In this document: piece after piece, positions 5,630 through 27,061 of the stretch
How positions within the stretch are numbered: position 1 is the first letter of the stretch
Layout: each line of letters starts with the position of its first letter
NCBI GenBank assembly: GCA_031402225.1
Contig: JANNSD010000034.1
Coordinates: forward strand, 406-64,405
Direction of reading: 5' to 3'
DNA length: 64,000 nt
Source of the DNA: Gemmatimonadota bacterium
GTDB taxonomy: Bacteria > Gemmatimonadota > Gemmatimonadetes > Gemmatimonadales > GWC2-71-9
The notes under the pieces: model-generated
The model's input: only the letters and a program-made list of their open reading frames with translations
Databases searched by the model: none
Told to the model about the DNA's origin: nothing
Position numbers and translations under genes: made by a program

Positions 5630-5950
5630 GGTGCCGCCGCCGTGGCTAGCCCGTGATACATGGGGAGTCGGGTTTCAACTGGGAACTCGAGATGACACCG
5701 GCCCAGGGAATTGTACAATGGCGCTTGACAATCGCCCCGACGTCGGCACTTTCACGTCGTCGGATCGGCTCAATCCCGGCTTGCCCGATGCCACGAGACG
5801 GCCGCCCGCGCCCGCCCGCCGGTCCTTGCAAGGCCGGAAATCGCGCCGTATCTTCCCGCCCGATTGAGGTTTCTTCCCCCCTGAAGATCCTGCCCAGCTG
5901 AGTAGCCCAAATTCTCTACGCTTTGAACTTCAATTGGGAATATCCTAACA

Positions 5951-17369: not shown

Positions 17370-18311
17370 CTAGCGGATTTGTGGCGGCTTGAATGCGCTG
17401 GTCAGCGCAGCAATATGATCAGGCCCGATCCCGCAGCAACCGCCGAAAATGGAAGCGCCCAGATGCTGCCAGTCATGCGCCTTCCTGACAAGTTCATCCG
17501 GCGGGATCACGTCGACGAATTCCCAGTCCGGTGACCTGAAGTAACCGCACTCAGGATAGGTGGCGACCGGGCCGGTCCAGTGCTTTCGCAGGATCGCCAG
17601 CGCTTCATCCGTGTTGTTAGGTGAGGTGTGCATCACCATCATCACCGCGGGCTTGAGCGCCGCCAGCGTGCGCGCGATATCGTCGAAGGAGCAATCGTCA
17701 CGGCCCCAGCCCTGCAATGTGCCGTCCTTGCCGCGCTCGACCGACAGGCCAATCCACACCGGCAATCCTGTGGCGAGCGCCGCTTCGCTGGCCCACACCG
17801 CGTAGTCGGTGTCCCTCATCACCTCCATCATGATGAGGTCGCAGCCGCAGGCCTCGAGTCCGTTCGCCTTCGCCTGGAACAGCGCGCGCGCGTCGCGCTC
17901 GCTGAGCACGAAGTTCAGGTTGTTGCGGTCGGTTCCAGTCGCCATCGGGCGCATCGTCGAAATGGAGCCCGCCACGCACACCTCGGTTCCGGCCGTCGCT
18001 TCCCGGGCCAGATTGACGGCAATGGCGTCAATGCGCGCGACATCACTGAACCTCCCGATGTGGCTGAACAGGATCGGGCTGGTCGCAAAGGTGTTGGCCG
18101 TGACGATGTCGGCGCCCGCATGGATGTAACCACGATGCACCGTGCGCACGATGTCCGGATGAGTGAGGTTGGCATCCGCGCACCAGGTGTCGCCGCTCAT
18201 CGGCGCACCGCGCCGCTGGATGTCGGTGCCCGTGCCGCCATCAAGGATGATGGTTTCGTGGCATCGCAGCTTGTCGGAAATTCTGGTGTAACTCACACGG
18301 ACCCTGCGCAT
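17370..18311 (-). CDS. Homocysteine S-methyltransferase family protein
   Basis: ILDGGTGT, GADIVTANTF and the GGCCGIGPDHI zinc-site motif. Confidence 0.85.
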   Translation of the reverse strand: MRRVRVSYTRISDKLRCHETIILDGGTGTDIQRRGAPMSGDTWCADANLTHPDIVRTVHRGYIHAGADIVTANTFATSPILFSHIGRFSDVARIDAIAVNLAREATAGTEVCVAGSISTMRPMATGTDRNNLNFVLSERDARALFQAKANGLEACGCDLIMMEVMRDTDYAVWASEAALATGLPVWIGLSVERGKDGTLQGWGRDDCSFDDIARTLAALKPAVMMVMHTSPNNTDEALAILRKHWTGPVATYPECGYFRSPDWEFVDVIPPDELVRKAHDWQHLGASIFGGCCGIGPDHIAALTSAFKPPQIR

Positions 18312-18353
18312 GGGATGTTCAAGCGGAGATATCAGGTCCAGTACTGAAGTAAC

Positions 18354-19292
18354 TCATGCCAGCGACGCCGGGTCAAGATTGGCGCCGCAGACGATGACGG
18401 CCACGCGCTCGTGTGCCACGGGCTGCACGAGCCCGGTCCACAGCGCCGCCAGCGGCAGCGCAGCCGCCGGCTCCACCGCCAGGCGCAGTTCGCGCCACAT
18501 GCGGCGCTGCGCGTCGCCGATCGCGGCGTCGTGCAGCAGGTGCGAAGCGGCGATGAACCCCTGGCGCTGCACCGCCCACGCGATGTCGCCGATGCGCCGC
18601 GCGCCCAGCGAATCGGCAGCGACGCCGGCTACCGCCACGTTCACCGGCATGCCGGCGGCGCGTGCGGCGTGCAGCGTCGGCGCCAGCGCCGGCTCCAGTG
18701 CCTCGACGCGGCAGCGGCCGCCGAACCAAGCCGCGACACCGGCGACGAGGCCGCCGCCGCCGACGCTGACGAGCACACGATCGGGCAGGCCGGCCTCGGC
18801 CTCGATCTCGCCGCCCAGCGTGCCCGCGCCGGCCACGACCTCGGCCTGGTCGTAGGCGTGCATCAGCAGTGCGCCGCTCTCGCACTGGCGCGCCAGGCAG
18901 GCTTCCAGCGCGTCGGGATAAGCGGCGCCGCGGACCACCACGCGCGCGCCGAGCGCCGCCAGCGCCGTGCGCTTGGCCGGGCTGGACACCTCGGGCAGGA
19001 AGACCTCGCAGGCCACCCCCAGCGCCTGCGCCGCGGTGGCCACGGCGATGCCGGCGTTGCCGCCCGAGGCCACCACCACGCCGGCCGCCGGCACGGGCAG
19101 CGAGCGCATGCGGTTGAACATGCCGCGCGCCTTGAAGCTGCCGCCGACCTGCAACTGCTCCAGCTTCAGCCAGACCTCGCCGCAGCGCAGGCCGAGTGCG
19201 GCGCCCGGCAGCCGCCACAGCGGCGTGCGGCGCACGTCGCCGGCGATGCGCGACGCAGCGGCGCGGATGATTTCCGGGGTGGGTGTCGTCAT
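18354..19292 (-). CDS. PLP-dependent threonine/serine dehydratase
   Basis: LKLEQLQVGGSFKARG (PLP-lysine motif), SGGNAGIAVA, VGGGGL. Confidence 0.85.
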   Translation of the reverse strand: MTTPTPEIIRAAASRIAGDVRRTPLWRLPGAALGLRCGEVWLKLEQLQVGGSFKARGMFNRMRSLPVPAAGVVVASGGNAGIAVATAAQALGVACEVFLPEVSSPAKRTALAALGARVVVRGAAYPDALEACLARQCESGALLMHAYDQAEVVAGAGTLGGEIEAEAGLPDRVLVSVGGGGLVAGVAAWFGGRCRVEALEPALAPTLHAARAAGMPVNVAVAGVAADSLGARRIGDIAWAVQRQGFIAASHLLHDAAIGDAQRRMWRELRLAVEPAAALPLAALWTGLVQPVAHERVAVIVCGANLDPASLA

Positions 19293-19559
19293 GCGCGCAT
19301 CCTAGCTACGGTTGATCCATGACTCAACCCACCACCAGCGGCCCTGCACGGGTGCAGCGCGGCGTGCGCATGAACACCGTCAGTCACGAAGCGAACCTGC
19401 CGCTCGCGCAATCGGATGGTCGCACAATCGGATAGTAACCAACAGCAGGCGAGGGCGCGTCGTCGATCGGGAACGACGCGCCGCATCACGGGGGGTACTC
19501 CTCGCGGTCTCGATATACCTGCTCCCGCAGCCTGGGAGATATCGCGCGGACCGGCGATT

Positions 19560-21233: not shown

Positions 21234-21478
21234 TCGGGGTTGGCGAAAGGTGGAAATGGTCGGGGCGTGAGTCTCGCACGCCGAGCGCTGTCCAACGGCC
21301 GCAAGTCTGCTCCAGCGCACATCATAGAATGCGGCGGGCGGGCGCAGACCGCCAGCCGCCACTGACAGAATGCTTCACACGACACTCGCGCTGTCGGCGC
21401 TCGCGCCGTATACTCGACGGGTCCTCGACCAACCCCGATCGAGATCCCCGTCCACCAGGACTCCCAGCGAAAGGCTCC

Positions 21479-22234
21479 ATGAAGAAGCGCGACCGGTTGG
21501 CTCTGATACGCCGGTTCTACCCGAAGGCTGTCACGACCAACGAGAGTGTCGAAGCGCTCTTCGACCTGTTGGAGTCACGATTCGATCTTGAGCCGCACCA
21601 GATCATGCTCGCCGACAGCATCTGCAGCGACGACGTCAACACCATCGAGTATCCGGCGCGTGCCTACGAGATGCTCGGCCCCTTCAAGATGGGTGGGCTG
21701 GATGGCTTTCCCTTCACCGGCCTGACCGGGATGGCCGCGTTCGCCGGACATGTCCCTGACGATGGTGCGGTGTTCGTCTTCTACGCCCCGCACATCGGGA
21801 TCTCCAAGGCCGGGGTGGTCGGCGAATTGATGCGCATCGGGCAGTCACGCCCGACAGGATGCTGTGGCGCCGCCAAGGGTGCGCTGGCCAGGCTCGTCGC
21901 CGGCCGGATCGTCGCGGGGCACGTCACCGAACTCGATCATCAGATCAACATCATCGAGCAACTCCTCCTCACCCAGCAGCGGCGCGTTCTCTCGGCGCCC
22001 GACCCGCTGCGCGAAGCAACCGAGGTCATATACGAGGCGATACACGAGCGCATCCATACCCTTGTGGATGCGACGACGTACCCATGCCGCTATGTGGTCA
22101 CGGTCGGAGCGATCCTGATCAATGGGGACCACGACGTCGGCTCGTTCGCCGAACCGCGCCATGTGTATGCACGCGACAGCAAGACCGGTGAAACGCTCGA
22201 CCTGTTCGAGGACTACATGCAACGGATGCGCTGA
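21479..22234 (+). CDS. LCIB/LCIC-like protein (limiting-CO2-inducible, beta-carbonic-anhydrase-fold family)
   Basis: Start at MKKRDRL (ATG 21479). ADSICSDDVN, FKMGGLDGFPFTGLTGM, FVFYAPHIGIS and RPTGCCGAAKGAL align by eye with the recalled Chlamydomonas LCIB blocks NLCRDEV, FNTNGLGGVLTCGVTGM, FFAFPHIAIN and SCACGALLA, i.e. the Cys/His/Cys zinc ligands. Confidence 0.65.
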   Translation: MKKRDRLALIRRFYPKAVTTNESVEALFDLLESRFDLEPHQIMLADSICSDDVNTIEYPARAYEMLGPFKMGGLDGFPFTGLTGMAAFAGHVPDDGAVFVFYAPHIGISKAGVVGELMRIGQSRPTGCCGAAKGALARLVAGRIVAGHVTELDHQINIIEQLLLTQQRRVLSAPDPLREATEVIYEAIHERIHTLVDATTYPCRYVVTVGAILINGDHDVGSFAEPRHVYARDSKTGETLDLFEDYMQRMR

Positions 22235-22237
22235 GAG

Positions 22238-23260
22238 ATGCAAACGGGCCACCACTACCCCGCGTTGCAGCTCCTCTTCTGGACACGTCGCGACATTCTG
22301 CAGCATCTCGCCGTCGCCACAGCGATCACCGCGGCGTACGCGGTGTTCGGCTGGCGCTGGCTGGCGATCCCCTGGCTGCCGGTGGCATTGCTCGGCACTG
22401 CCGTCGCGTTCCTCACCGGCTTCAAGAACAACGCGTCGTACGATCGCACGTGGGAAGCGCGCCGGATCTGGGGCGCCATCGTCAACGCCAGCCGCAGGTG
22501 GGGGGTGATGGCGCGCGACTACGTCACGGATCGCGAAGTCAGCGGCGGCACGACACCAGGCGAGGTTGAGGCTGCGCGCCGGGAGCTGTACGACCGCCAC
22601 TTCGCCTGGCTCACCGCGCTGCGCTACGCATTGCGGGAATCGCGGGCATGGGAAGCGATAAATCTGCCGCACAATGCCGAGTACCGGAGGCGCTGGTTCC
22701 AGATCGATGAACAGGAGGGGGAGCTGGGGAGTGCGCTGCTGCCGTATCTGGATCCGACCGAGCACGCGGCAGTGATGACGAGGTCGAACAAGGCCGCACA
22801 GATCCTGGCGCTGCAGTCCGCACATCTCGAGCGCTTGCGGCGGCGCGGCCTGATCGAGGATTTCCGCCACATGGAGATGACGCGCGCACTCGCGGAACTG
22901 TTCACACAGCAGGGGGCGTCGGAGCGGATCAAGAATTTCCCGTACCCGCGGCAGTACGCGACAGTGAACCTGTGGTTCGTGAAGATCTTCGTGGTGCTCG
23001 TGCCGCTTGGAATGCTGCAGGAGTTCGGGAAACTCGGCGGTGAGCTGATCTGGCTTACGATCCCGTTCAGCGCCCTCGCCGGCTGGATCTTCACGACCAT
23101 GGAGAAGGTCGGCGAAGGAACGGAGAATCCGTTCGAAGGCAGCGCGAACGACGTCCCGATCACGCAGATGAGCCGTATGATCGAGATCGACCTCCGGCAA
23201 ATGCTGGGTGACACGGATGTGCCGCCGCCGATCACCGCGGTAAACGGCTTCCTGACCTGA
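22238..23260 (+). CDS. Bestrophin-family (UPF0187/YneE) anion channel
   Basis: GFKNNASYDRTWEARRIWGAIVNASRRW signature; four N-terminal helices. Starts 4 nt after the LCIB-like stop. Confidence 0.85.
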   Translation: MQTGHHYPALQLLFWTRRDILQHLAVATAITAAYAVFGWRWLAIPWLPVALLGTAVAFLTGFKNNASYDRTWEARRIWGAIVNASRRWGVMARDYVTDREVSGGTTPGEVEAARRELYDRHFAWLTALRYALRESRAWEAINLPHNAEYRRRWFQIDEQEGELGSALLPYLDPTEHAAVMTRSNKAAQILALQSAHLERLRRRGLIEDFRHMEMTRALAELFTQQGASERIKNFPYPRQYATVNLWFVKIFVVLVPLGMLQEFGKLGGELIWLTIPFSALAGWIFTTMEKVGEGTENPFEGSANDVPITQMSRMIEIDLRQMLGDTDVPPPITAVNGFLT

Positions 23261-23290
23261 GGAGACCGGAACGGCGGAGATGGAGCGGGG

Positions 23291-23530
23291 TCAGTGCATC
23301 ACCTGCATCTCCATGCCGTCCGTGCTCGCCAGCGTGAAAGCCGTTCCCCGGATCGTCCGCTCCGCGTGCTCCGCGAACTACCCAGTTGCCGGGGGCCGAA
23401 GATGGAGCAGCTTGAAGCGCACGACCAGGAGGCCCGTGGGCACCGTCGAGCCTCTCACGAAGCTGACCGGGTGCCGACGGCGGTTGCTGGCCGCCTTGGC
23501 CGGGTCCCAGGTCAAGTGCAGGTCACCCAT
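23291..23530 (-). pseudogene. BrnT-like (DUF497) toxin remnant, frameshifted and shortened
   Basis: Own translation: MGDLHLTWDPAKAASNRRRHPVSF... matches the BrnT N-terminal F-x-WD-x-x-KA-x-x-N-x-x-KHGVSF. It stops after about 50 codons, the tail continues in another frame, and there is no partner antitoxin. Confidence 0.4.
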
Positions 23531-23654: not shown

Positions 23655-23931
23655 CAGATGTCCCGCGGGTGCAGTTCGCCCTGGACGTGCAGAATGGGGC
23701 CGCGCCCATCACCGAGCTGTGCACCGCGTACGGGATTTTGAGGAGTACGGTCTGCCCACGCGCCTCCGCTCGTCCAACGGAGTGCCCTTCGCCTCGCAGG
23801 CGCTCGGGCGGCTCTCCGCCCTCTCTTCAACGCGCCGAACGCTGCGGTCGAGCCCGGCACGCACCCCGGCGAAGGGTGCCAGGTTCAAGGCCGAACTGGC
23901 CGCCCTCGATTCGGCGGCCGCCCGGCGCTGA
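23655..23931 (+). pseudogene. IS481-like (rve integrase-core) transposase remnant with a large internal deletion and frameshifts
   Basis: An HTH-like piece (FALDVQNGAAPITELCTAYGI) is joined directly to FEEYGLPTRLRSSNGVPFASQALGRLSALS (the rve core block F-EYG-P-x-IR-DNG-PF). Downstream pieces are in other frames. Confidence 0.5.
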
Positions 23932-25264: not shown

Positions 25265-27061
25265 ATGTCCGAACCCCTCGAACGGCTGCGACACGTGCTG
25301 CATGATCGCTACCGCATCGAGCGCGAGCTCGGTGCCGGCGGCATGGCCACGGTCTACCTCGCGCAGGACCTCAAGCACCATCGGCTCGTCGCCTTGAAGG
25401 TGCTCCATCCCGAGCTGAGCGCGTCGCTCGGTGCGGAGCGCTTCCTTCGCGAGATCGCCGTCGCCGCCGGATTGACCCATCCGCACATCCTGCCCGTCCA
25501 CGACTCGGGAGCGGCGGAGGGGATCCTGTTCTACGTGATGCCGTACGTCGATGGGCCCAGCCTGCGTCAGCGCCTCGAGCGTGAAGGCGAGCTGCCCGTG
25601 GCGGACGCTGTGCGCATCCTGCGCGAGGTCGCGGACGCCATGTCGCTCGCCCACCGGCGCGGCATCGTCCACCGCGACCTCAAGCCGGAAAATGTGCTGC
25701 TCTCCGGCGAGCACGCCGTCGTGGCCGACTTCGGGATCGCGAAGGCGCTGCACCTGTCCGGCGAGGGCGACCGCCTCACCGGGACGGGAATGGCCGTTGG
25801 GACGCCGGCCTACATGGCCCCCGAGCAGGCGGCGGCTGATGCCATGACCGACCACCGGGCGGACATCTATGCGCTGGGTGTCCTCGGCTACGAGCTGCTG
25901 ACGGGCGCACCGCCCTTCTTCGGTGGCTCACCCCAGCAAATCGTCGTCGCCCACCTCATGCGCGCGCCCGAGCCCCTCGCGTCGGTGCGTCCGGGAATCC
26001 CGCCGCGGATCGCAGGGGCGGTGATGCGCTGCCTGGAGAAGCGGCCGGCGGACCGCTGGCAGTCGGCGGACGAGTTCCGCCGGGAGCTGGCCGCCGAGTC
26101 GCCGTCGAGCGGGGGCGGCTCGGGCCAGGCGACGGCCACGGTCCCCGGCTACCTGCCGATCACCGAGAACATCTGCCGGAGGTTTGACCGCACGACCTTC
26201 GACCCGCGCATGATCGGCGACCGCCTCCATTACCTGGACAATCAGGTCCGGTCGAACGTGCTGATCCTCCTGATCCAGAACTGGTCGGTCGAGGCCATCG
26301 ATCCGGCTACGACGCTGCCCGGGTCGCCCTACCGGGTGATCGTGCCGACGCTCTACGGATTCGAGCGCGAGCGCCATCCCAGGCTCCCGGTCGGCATTGC
26401 CGACCACATCGTGCTCCTCGAGGCCCTGCTCGACCACCTGACCGCATCGGGAGGCGTGGACGCGGTGATCGCGGTCGGATTCTCGGCGGGCGGTGACCTC
26501 GTGCTGCGGATGGCCGCGGACCAGGGCAGCACCGCTCGGCTCGATGGTTGCCTCGCGCTCGGCCCCAATGTCGGCGTCGAGACGTGCACCGTCTCCGGCG
26601 TGCTCGCCGAGGCGACGAGCAGCGCACCCGAGGTGCTGCTGCCCGCGCTCAACCGCGCGCTCGCCTCGGCGTCGTCCGTCGGGGACTGGCTCGATCTCGC
26701 GGACGACTTCCGCCACATCGTGCACAACTTCGGGGGCGACCTCCGTCCGATCCAGCGCTTCGCGCACGACACCGTCACGCCGTGGCGTGTGGAGGGACCG
26801 GATCTGCTGCTCCGCTGGTATCGGCAAGCCACGGAGGCAGGACGCCTGGTCCGCTGCGTGTTCGAGGACAGCGAGGTGTACCGCAACAGGGCGCGGGAGC
26901 TCCAGTTGCGAAACCTGGACGAAGGCGTGCTCGGCGAGGGCTATCGGCCGGGCTCGATCACGGTGGAACCTGTGGCCCGGCACTTCGAGCTGCTCGACCC
27001 GTCGCTGATCATGCGCCATCTCGACGCCATGGTGGCCGAGCTTCGCGCGGCACCGCAGTGA
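25265..27061 (+). CDS. Ser/Thr protein kinase fused to a C-terminal alpha/beta-hydrolase-like domain; no TM segment
   Basis: GAGGMATVY, VALK, HRDLKPEN, DFG and GTPAYMAPE. The C-terminal half contains VIAVGFSAGGDLVL (a GxSxG nucleophile-elbow-like motif). Confidence 0.9.
   Translation: MSEPLERLRHVLHDRYRIERELGAGGMATVYLAQDLKHHRLVALKVLHPELSASLGAERFLREIAVAAGLTHPHILPVHDSGAAEGILFYVMPYVDGPSLRQRLEREGELPVADAVRILREVADAMSLAHRRGIVHRDLKPENVLLSGEHAVVADFGIAKALHLSGEGDRLTGTGMAVGTPAYMAPEQAAADAMTDHRADIYALGVLGYELLTGAPPFFGGSPQQIVVAHLMRAPEPLASVRPGIPPRIAGAVMRCLEKRPADRWQSADEFRRELAAESPSSGGGSGQATATVPGYLPITENICRRFDRTTFDPRMIGDRLHYLDNQVRSNVLILLIQNWSVEAIDPATTLPGSPYRVIVPTLYGFERERHPRLPVGIADHIVLLEALLDHLTASGGVDAVIAVGFSAGGDLVLRMAADQGSTARLDGCLALGPNVGVETCTVSGVLAEATSSAPEVLLPALNRALASASSVGDWLDLADDFRHIVHNFGGDLRPIQRFAHDTVTPWRVEGPDLLLRWYRQATEAGRLVRCVFEDSEVYRNRARELQLRNLDEGVLGEGYRPGSITVEPVARHFELLDPSLIMRHLDAMVAELRAAPQ

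Follow-up and report, generated by a model that had tools for sequence, protein, structure and literature searches.

The stretch of DNA considered here, called the window below, comprises 64,000 nucleotides (nt) of contig JANNSD010000034.1 (positions 406 to 64,405 of the forward strand; assembly GCA_031402225.1) from a bacterium of the Gemmatimonadota, lineage GWC2-71-9. Two adjacent genes on its plus strand are the subject of this study. The first (21479..22234) begins with ATG, ends with TGA at 22232-22234 and encodes a soluble protein of 251 amino acids (aa) of the LCIB type of carbonic anhydrase (CA). The second (22238..23260, with its ATG at 22238) encodes a bestrophin channel subunit of 340 aa with four hydrophobic segments. 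Only 3 nt (22235..22237) separate the two genes on this strand, and the gap is identical in the relatives from Gemmatimonadota. An earlier sequence-only reading, which proposed that the pair couples the interconversion of CO2 and HCO3- to anion conduction, had placed the second start 4 nt after the stop, and the ATG is indeed the fourth base after the stop codon. Both start codons agree with homologues of 251 aa and 340 aa. An upstream ATG at 21329, which would give a longer open reading frame for the LCIB-type protein, was rejected, as the lengths of the homologues lend it no support.

The intergenic region upstream of the pair (21363..21478, plus strand) is shared with a divergent DUF1801 gene and presumably holds the promoter and the ribosome-binding region. 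A Shine-Dalgarno-like GAAAGG lies 6-11 nt 5' of the ATG of the LCIB-type gene, and no match to the sigma-70 consensus was found in the region upstream of that gene. No promoter-like site was found between the two genes, and no terminator was found on the plus strand between them or just 3' of the bestrophin gene. Around the operon, Rfam families gave no match apart from a sole sub-threshold chance hit, and no tRNA was found either. With a common strand, a 3-nt spacer, no internal signals and an adjacency that is conserved (see below), the two genes look like an operon by sequence. That this operon is self-contained is a part of the model favoured below, and we hold it to be fairly probable along with the rest of that model.

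The 251-aa protein can be assigned, on profile, alignment and predicted fold, to the LCIB (theta/beta) CA family as a genuine member. The Pfam profile LCIB_C_CA (PF18599) matched it far beyond chance, over positions 2-222 of 223 (E = 4.4e-65; 219.5 bits against a cut-off of 25). NCBIfam holds no model for this protein or for the bestrophin. The blocks from which the family had first been recognized are all present, namely ICSDDV at residue 48, GGLDGFPFTGLTGM at 72, FYAPHIGIS at 101 and GCCGAAKGAL at 127. A search of all PDB sequences returned LCIB-family structures only. The best match was 6kfs (E = 1.6e-25), presumably a diatom structure of the PtLCIB3/PtLCIB4 type, and it was followed by diatom PtLCIB4 (5b5y, E = 3e-24, plus the S47R and H88A mutants), Chlamydomonas LCIC (5b5x, E = 4e-9) and Chlamydomonas LCIB (5k5w, E = 1.5e-7). 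The sequence-only reading had likened the protein to Chlamydomonas LCIB; this was right as to the family but not as to the closest type, which is diatom PtLCIB3/4 (E 1e-24, against 1e-7 to 1e-9 for LCIB and LCIC). The PDB entries 9vzj, 9w00 and 9w05 were also among the matches. They were considered as close bacterial relatives and rejected, since their distance is similar to that of the diatom proteins and their motifs are diatom-like.

The alignment with the solved structures brings out a putative zinc site of the Cys/His/Cys type that is in register with those of the known LCIB proteins. The codons of Cys49-Ser50-Asp51 (21623..21631, plus strand, like those that follow) align to the 'LCSDEV' of PtLCIB4, so placing Cys49 as the first zinc ligand opposite C46, Ser50 opposite S47 and Asp51 opposite D48. 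His105 (21791..21793) would be the second ligand and corresponds to H102, and one of the two residues Cys128-Cys129 (21860..21865; C125/C126 in PtLCIB4) would be the third. H91 corresponds to H88. The residue numbering relative to PtLCIB4 is fixed, because the entries for the mutants S47R (5b60) and H88A anchor it. An alignment of 18 homologues from bacteria, with identities ranging down to 60%, shows no variation at C49, D51, H91, H105, C128 and C129 and almost none at S50. An AlphaFold2 (AF2) model of the protein reached a mean predicted local distance difference test score (pLDDT) of 81.6 and a predicted template modelling score (pTM) of 0.84. When this model was searched with Foldseek, PtLCIB4 and 6kfs came first, with template modelling (TM) scores of 0.75-0.80, then Chlamydomonas LCIB and LCIC (CrLCIB and CrLCIC), the E values of these four running from 1e-13 to 1e-5, and canonical beta-CAs matched only weakly. 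Membership of the LCIB family and the zinc triad, the basis of the sequence-only reading, were thus borne out by the profile, the alignment to solved structures and the predicted fold. No hydrophobic segment or signal peptide was found in the protein, which should therefore be cytoplasmic. Zinc binding and the hydration of CO2 are predicted for it from the conserved residues.

The LCIB family is small: of 1.84 billion representative clusters, 1112 reach an E of 1e-3 or better. Its distant representatives are in many cases tandem double or triple LCIB domains, one of them (P0243) from a diplonemid eukaryote, and one named distant representative is a Pedobacter protein. A few fusions, to a DUF1275 membrane domain (P0259), to Calx-beta and an Na_Ca_ex exchanger domain (P0304) and to a cyclic-nucleotide-binding domain (P0268), were also seen. 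No fusion of LCIB to a bestrophin was present among 10 long LCIB-containing representatives, and no plasmid-borne LCIB homologue was found.

The 340-aa protein is, by profile and by model, a member of the bestrophin family. Pfam Bestrophin_2 (PF25539) matched it with an E of 5.2e-47 (161.2 bits against a cut-off of 27), and the bestrophin signature quoted in the sequence-only reading, FKNNASYDRTWEARRIWGAIVN, was found at residue 62. The bacterial channel KpBest is its sole match among solved structures (E = 1e-20, 23-24% identity), and no eukaryotic bestrophin chain was matched by phmmer at E 0.01 or below. The AF2 model of the monomer (pLDDT 79) gave target-normalized TM scores of 0.77-0.83 to KpBest chains in Foldseek. 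The hydrophobic segments at residues 20-38, 41-62, 239-264 and 270-288 are placed as expected. Compared with KpBest, the window protein has some 45 additional residues, in a region (roughly 89-171) that aligns only in part, and the acidic run that forms the Ca2+ clasp of animal and other eukaryotic bestrophins (ENPFEGSANDVP) is absent.

The pore neck of bestrophins is made of three hydrophobic or aromatic residues on the second transmembrane segment (TM2). In KpBest, the transmembrane neck is formed by I62, I66 and F70, and in animal bestrophins by I76, F80 and F84 (PMC9253114). In an ungapped alignment, the window protein has T54, F58 and F62 opposite the KpBest residues, the first being Thr rather than Ile (codons of Thr54 to Phe62 at 22397..22423, plus strand). 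F58 and F62 are invariant in all 139 aligned members of the clade, and T54 occurs in 132 of the 139. KpBest, whose neck reads I-I-F, is selective for Na+, and the exchange I66F turned it to Cl- selectivity; in human Best1, the reverse exchange F80I lowered the Cl- permeability, and the permeability ratio PHCO3/PCl of human bestrophins lies at 0.44-0.69 (PMC8496536). The clade thus has the anion-type state at the one position that has been shown experimentally to switch charge selectivity, and we infer anion selectivity because a Phe stands at the position equivalent to I66F. The Phe209 codon (22862..22864, plus strand) lies opposite I180, the residue of the cytosolic aperture in KpBest. This position is F or Y in most members of the clade and is followed by R210-H211 in the sub-clade of the window protein. 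The protein is accordingly predicted to form a homopentameric channel that conducts anions, including HCO3-.

The occurrence of the pair was surveyed with one genome per GTDB species. This gave 311 stretches with an LCIB relative, of which the best 80 were used, and bestrophins in these loci were found by tblastn with the window bestrophin. The adjacency is not unique to the present genome, since in 59 of the 80 loci the LCIB gene has a bestrophin gene as its immediate neighbour on the same strand. Of these 59, two are cut by a contig end and one has only a 33-codon bestrophin remnant. The paired loci span Gemmatimonadota, Myxococcota and Bacteroidota. The counts are not phylogenetically independent, since related Bacteroidota contribute many of the loci. 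If one to three of the roughly 4000 genes of a genome encode bestrophins, chance adjacency would be expected in about 0.1-0.2%. The nearest LCIB relatives, with 86-91% protein identity, are from metagenome-assembled genomes (MAGs) of Gemmatimonadaceae. Both gene orders were seen. The LCIB gene precedes the bestrophin gene with gaps of 3-9 nt in Gemmatimonadota and Myxococcota, and with somewhat larger gaps in one group of Chitinophagales and Flavobacterium; the bestrophin gene comes first in most Bacteroidota (Cytophagia, Chitinophagia, Flavobacteriia and Sphingobacteriia). Most gaps do not exceed 20 nt. The two proteins have correlated pairwise distances (Mantel r 0.34, with 0 of 2000 permutations as high), and the mean distance is 0.25 for LCIB against 0.38 for the channel, so that LCIB is the more conserved partner. 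The correlation is moderate, which indicates co-inheritance with some reshuffling.

The similarity at the DNA level also follows the pair. When the window was compared with loci from Gemmatimonadaceae and Myxococcota (L001, L003, L004, L005, L006 and L121), similarity of 70-86% was confined to 21458-23280, with its start 21 nt ahead of the first start codon and its end 20 nt past the second stop codon. Six flanking proteins of the window had no match in these loci, and in one Gemmatimonadales MAG the flanks consist of a major facilitator superfamily transporter gene and an unrelated hypothetical gene. Since the similarity is limited to the pair and the flanks are unrelated, the pair seems to have been kept as a unit.

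A third gene accompanies the pair in part of the loci. In 23 of the 80, a gene for a membrane protein of roughly 225 aa lies directly upstream on the same strand, and in 20 of the 23 the order is this gene, bestrophin and LCIB, a three-gene unit. In the other three (L012, L033 and L052) it stands upstream of LCIB, and the bestrophin is missing or decayed. The protein resembles a K+ channel, with a match to Pfam Ion_trans_2 (E = 1.4e-9) and a conserved selectivity-filter motif TLTSIGFGD. Examples are L007:4247-4933 (plus strand) and the genes in L011, L015, L024, L050, L061 and L076. The 64-kb window itself contains no K+-channel-like gene, and no second CA or bestrophin. The presence of a dedicated cation channel next to the bestrophin agrees with a role of the bestrophin as the anion pathway, with K+ as the counter-ion. 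Two of these loci deserve a remark. In L052, from Foetidibacter luteolus, the remnant mentioned above (5835-5933) lies between the K+-channel-like gene and LCIB and is 76% identical to window residues 297-329; it is an example of the decay of a channel gene. L024 (CALRIT020000012.1), which was binned as the cyanobacterium Vulcanococcus limneticus, has the K+-channel-like gene, the bestrophin and LCIB in an arrangement of Bacteroidota type, and its bestrophin groups with Bacteroidota on the tree, so that the arrangement is either a binning error or a transfer.

A further line of evidence comes from bestrophins that are related to the window protein but have another neighbour. The closest bestrophins outside Gemmatimonadota and Myxococcota are 340-aa proteins of Bacteroidota type with 60-64% identity. 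Of three such bestrophins that were looked up, two stand alone, and the third (P0240) has, 16 nt downstream, a gene of the Pfam family Pro_CA for a canonical beta-CA with the CSDSR and HxxC motifs. A metagenome scan was then seeded with this sister sub-clade, and the best 80 of more than 451 loci were used. In 33 of the 80, this canonical type of beta-CA lies immediately downstream on the same strand, and in three LCIB lies upstream. Where at least 800 nt were available on each side (48 loci), a CA gene neighbours the bestrophin in 24, and apart from the beta-CA no widely conserved neighbour was found in the 80 bestrophin loci. The beta-CA genes (L083:6039-6674, plus strand, and those in 33 of the loci L086-L165) lie 15-60 nt downstream of bestrophins that are 47-64% identical to that of the window. 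On a neighbour-joining tree of 140 bestrophins, the LCIB-linked, beta-CA-linked and unlinked branches interleave, and the branch of the window protein, with LCIB upstream, adjoins beta-CA-linked branches. Two CA families with a common fold and without detectable sequence similarity therefore fill one slot, which is a case of non-orthologous displacement. This argues that CA function is what matters to the channel and, as the partner is interchangeable, that the LCIB-type partner is a working CA.

The presence of a beta-CA in the same slot beside sister bestrophins and the anion-type residues of the neck support the idea, put forward in the sequence-only reading, of a coupled module of CA and anion channel. 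It is reasonably probable, in our estimation, that a cytoplasmic LCIB-type zinc CA and an inner-membrane pentameric bestrophin that conducts HCO3- form one operon-encoded module. The LCIB-type enzyme would hydrate CO2 to HCO3- and H+ in the cytoplasm, and the bestrophin pentamer would pass HCO3-, and probably also chloride, down its electrochemical gradient. At an inside-negative potential, the flux of HCO3- would probably be outward. By the Nernst relation, the concentration of a passively distributed anion at -120 to -150 mV would be lower inside than outside by a factor of about 100 or more, and CO2 would equilibrate freely; given both, HCO3- made by the CA should exit while the proton stays. 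The net result would be the removal of bicarbonate and the retention of a proton, by which the cytoplasm would be acidified and respiratory CO2 disposed of. This may serve to keep the pH of the cytoplasm stable, for instance in alkaline surroundings or when metabolism consumes protons. Where the K+-channel gene is present, efflux of K+ alongside HCO3- could make the flux electroneutral.

Several observations speak against such a module. An ungated leak of HCO3- together with the re-entry of CO2 would uncouple the membrane, and gating of the channel must therefore be assumed. The direction of the flux and the role in pH homeostasis are drawn purely from thermodynamic reasoning. Chlamydomonas LCIB and LCIC showed no CA activity in vitro, whether recombinant or native (PMC8825250), and KpBest, the only bacterial bestrophin that has been characterized, is a cation channel (PMC8496536). 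The coupling is not obligatory, as 21 of the 80 LCIB loci have no neighbouring bestrophin, and about half of the sister bestrophins with enough flanking DNA have no CA neighbour. No consistent substitute transporter was found in the 21 loci, where the neighbours are PMSR, ThuA, Metallophos_2, DoxX_3, DinB_2, Pro_dh and others. Finally, the structure prediction, which the sequence-only reading had named as a way to inspect the zinc site, supported the LCIB-type fold, but the loops of the active site (residues 50-55 and 71-83) are the very part in which the AF2 model has poor confidence, as might be expected since neither zinc nor a dimer partner was modelled.

Other explanations of the pair have to be considered. 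The channel could admit external HCO3-, which the CA would equilibrate with CO2 so as to feed biotin carboxylases and other enzymes that require HCO3- or CO2 in a heterotroph growing at air levels of CO2. Non-autotrophs need either a CA or the uptake of inorganic carbon at atmospheric CO2, and MpsAB/DabAB and CA complement each other (PMC6689103). The pairing of bestrophins with two types of CA would fit any role in the handling of inorganic carbon, including this one. However, the passive entry of an anion is opposed by the inside-negative potential, by the factor of about 100 or more that the Nernst relation predicts, CA alone suffices when CO2 diffuses in, and no carboxylase or Rubisco gene is conserved beside the pair; such a supply of bicarbonate thus appears unlikely. 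We also judge it improbable that the LCIB-like protein, or the beta-CA in the sister loci, is a regulatory subunit that binds CO2 or HCO3- and gates the bestrophin. A sensor of this kind would account for the CA fold and zinc site without measurable activity in Chlamydomonas LCIB/LCIC (PMC8825250), and it would agree with the stronger conservation of LCIB and the correlated distances of the two proteins. Nevertheless, a canonical beta-CA whose catalytic motifs are complete can take the place of the partner, Ser50 of the window protein is of the PtLCIB4 type and PtLCIB3/4 are active (PMC9614477), and no fusion of the two domains occurred in the 10 long LCIB proteins.

The bestrophin might instead conduct Na+ or another cation in the manner of KpBest, with the CA serving proton or charge balance. 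KpBest is a Na+ channel (PMC8496536), and the window protein lacks the eukaryotic acidic Ca2+-clasp run just as KpBest does. Yet the neck position that switches selectivity is Phe in every member of the clade, the very state that makes KpBest Cl--selective, and many loci encode a separate, dedicated K+-channel-like gene, so a cation channel seems very unlikely here. The last explanation, that the adjacency reflects descent or hitch-hiking without any functional coupling, can draw on the many loci from related Bacteroidota, whose counts are not independent, and on the 21 LCIB genes without a bestrophin neighbour. It is hardly credible in view of three phyla, two gene orders and two CA families, of flanks that are unrelated even between close relatives and of gaps short enough for translational coupling. 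A more ambitious version of the favoured module, in which the bacterial operon is a widespread and hitherto unrecognized device for inorganic carbon and pH, a 'bicarbonate valve' driven by the membrane potential that converts CO2 into protons kept inside and exported (K)HCO3, and is also the prototype that was recruited for the algal route of LCIB and BST, is doubtful. The elusive activity of LCIB in vitro would then be explicable by its dependence on a channel partner.

The algal system is the obvious comparison, as LCIB/LCIC and BST1-3 of Chlamydomonas belong to the identical two protein families. In the algal model, stromal LCIB turns CO2 into HCO3-, which BST1-3 carry to the lumen (PMC6708349; PMC8825250), and KpBest from bacteria was the best template for modelling BST1-3 (PMC6708349). 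The transport runs from the N side (the stroma, akin to the cytoplasm) to the P side (the lumen, akin to the periplasm), and the flux proposed for the bacterial pair would be topologically alike. The algal genes, however, are dispersed in the nucleus and linked by regulation and physiology only, whereas the bacterial pair is operon-like. The algal system also has a Rubisco-centred purpose, whereas no conserved Rubisco, pyrenoid or lumenal CA gene stands alongside the bacterial pair. The groups that carry the pair are known as heterotrophs. No Rubisco or microcompartment gene is conserved near the pair in the loci examined (the rest of the genomes was not searched for Rubisco), and the pair does not qualify as a CO2-concentrating mechanism on this basis. 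Apart from bestrophin, no gene family other than the K+-channel-like gene (23 of 80) occurs in more than eight of the 80 LCIB loci, and the annotated neighbours in the window are unrelated.

On the side of the enzyme, CrLCIB is only about 19-21% identical to the window protein. The diatom proteins PtLCIB3 and PtLCIB4 are the best matches (E 1e-24 to 1e-25, about 30% identity, TM score 0.75-0.80), they have the Cys-Ser-Asp, His and Cys-Cys motifs in common with it, and they were reported to be constitutively active (PMC9614477). They differ in being eukaryotic, targeted to organelles and not part of an operon, whereas the members of the bacterial clade are compact (246-255 aa) and lack a targeting peptide. 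On the side of the channel, KpBest (4wd7/4wd8) is of the same Pfam family and fold (TM score about 0.8) and likewise has no eukaryotic Ca2+ clasp, but its Na+-selective neck is I-I-F and that of the window clade T-F-F. We know of no CA partner reported for KpBest. Human bestrophins 1-4, which have very low sequence identity to the window protein, share the F-F neck of the window clade, and a high HCO3- permeability has been measured in the human proteins. They are activated by Ca2+ and have long regulatory C-termini, which are absent from the window protein.

The coupling of a CA to a bicarbonate or anion pathway has precedents in the anion transporters of the SulP family that are fused or adjacent to beta-CAs and in the 'bicarbonate transport metabolon' of animals. 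Those rely on secondary carriers of the SLC26/SulP fold and on canonical beta or alpha CAs, whereas the window has a bestrophin channel and an LCIB-type CA. DabAB/MpsAB and the cyanobacterial CupA/B-NDH-1 likewise combine a CA-like subunit with a membrane protein, and the DabAB/MpsAB type is also present in non-autotrophs. MpsAB can stand in for CA in S. aureus and E. coli (PMC6689103). In these systems, the membrane protein is a cation-translocating subunit like those of Mrp or complex I, and HCO3- is accumulated inside; as the channel of the bacterial pair is passive, such accumulation is not expected there.

Each of the two proteins is an ordinary member of a described family, and it is their pairing, a CA coupled to an anion pathway, that is new. 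No description of a bacterial gene pair of LCIB and bestrophin, or of bestrophin and CA, was found in the full-text literature searched, with subscription journals mostly outside the search. The pairing would be the first genomic link of bacterial bestrophins to the handling of bicarbonate, and the conserved association with a CA offers them a concrete and testable function, namely the conduction of bicarbonate. In the field, KpBest serves only as a structural stand-in for the human channel involved in disease, and LCIB is central to the CO2-concentrating mechanism of algae and to its engineering into crops. The interchange of LCIB and beta-CA speaks, independently, for LCIB-type proteins working as carbonic anhydrases in vivo. 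A compact bacterial LCIB homologue beside a likely membrane partner, in strains that can be cultured, would be a tractable system for the function of LCIB-type proteins. Carriers that can be grown in culture include Runella limosa DSM 17973, R. defluvii DSM 17976, Pedobacter caeni DSM 16990, Emticicia and Flectobacillus rivi. The frequent K+-channel gene suggests, moreover, that an arrangement of anion channel and counter-ion channel like that of epithelia may exist in bacteria.

The surroundings of the pair in the window are of a different kind. The divergent DUF1801 gene lies upstream, and downstream of the bestrophin gene come debris and then, on the opposite strand, a gene for a fatty-acid hydroxylase. 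The debris fills a gap of 700 nt. It includes a 50-codon fragment (23378-23530, minus strand) similar to the N-terminal part of BrnT toxins, with a Pfam match (E = 0.0017) that does not reach the cut-off, and a frame (23719-23931, plus strand) with an integrase/transposase-like motif, 'YGLPTRLRSSNGVPFAS', and no Pfam match. As for a recent horizontal transfer of the pair, its GC content of 0.63-0.64 lies a little under the mean of the window (0.67) but inside the range of the neighbouring genes. The region of a pyridoxal phosphate-dependent (PALP) gene at 18300-19500 stands above this mean, with a GC content of 0.72-0.77 and 0.92 at third codon positions, and the adjoining gene for a homocysteine S-methyltransferase has a GC content of 0.63. 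Further downstream, at 25265-27061 on the plus strand, lies a gene for a Ser/Thr protein kinase of 598 aa, the C-terminal half of which is faintly similar to alpha/beta-hydrolases, an unusual architecture.

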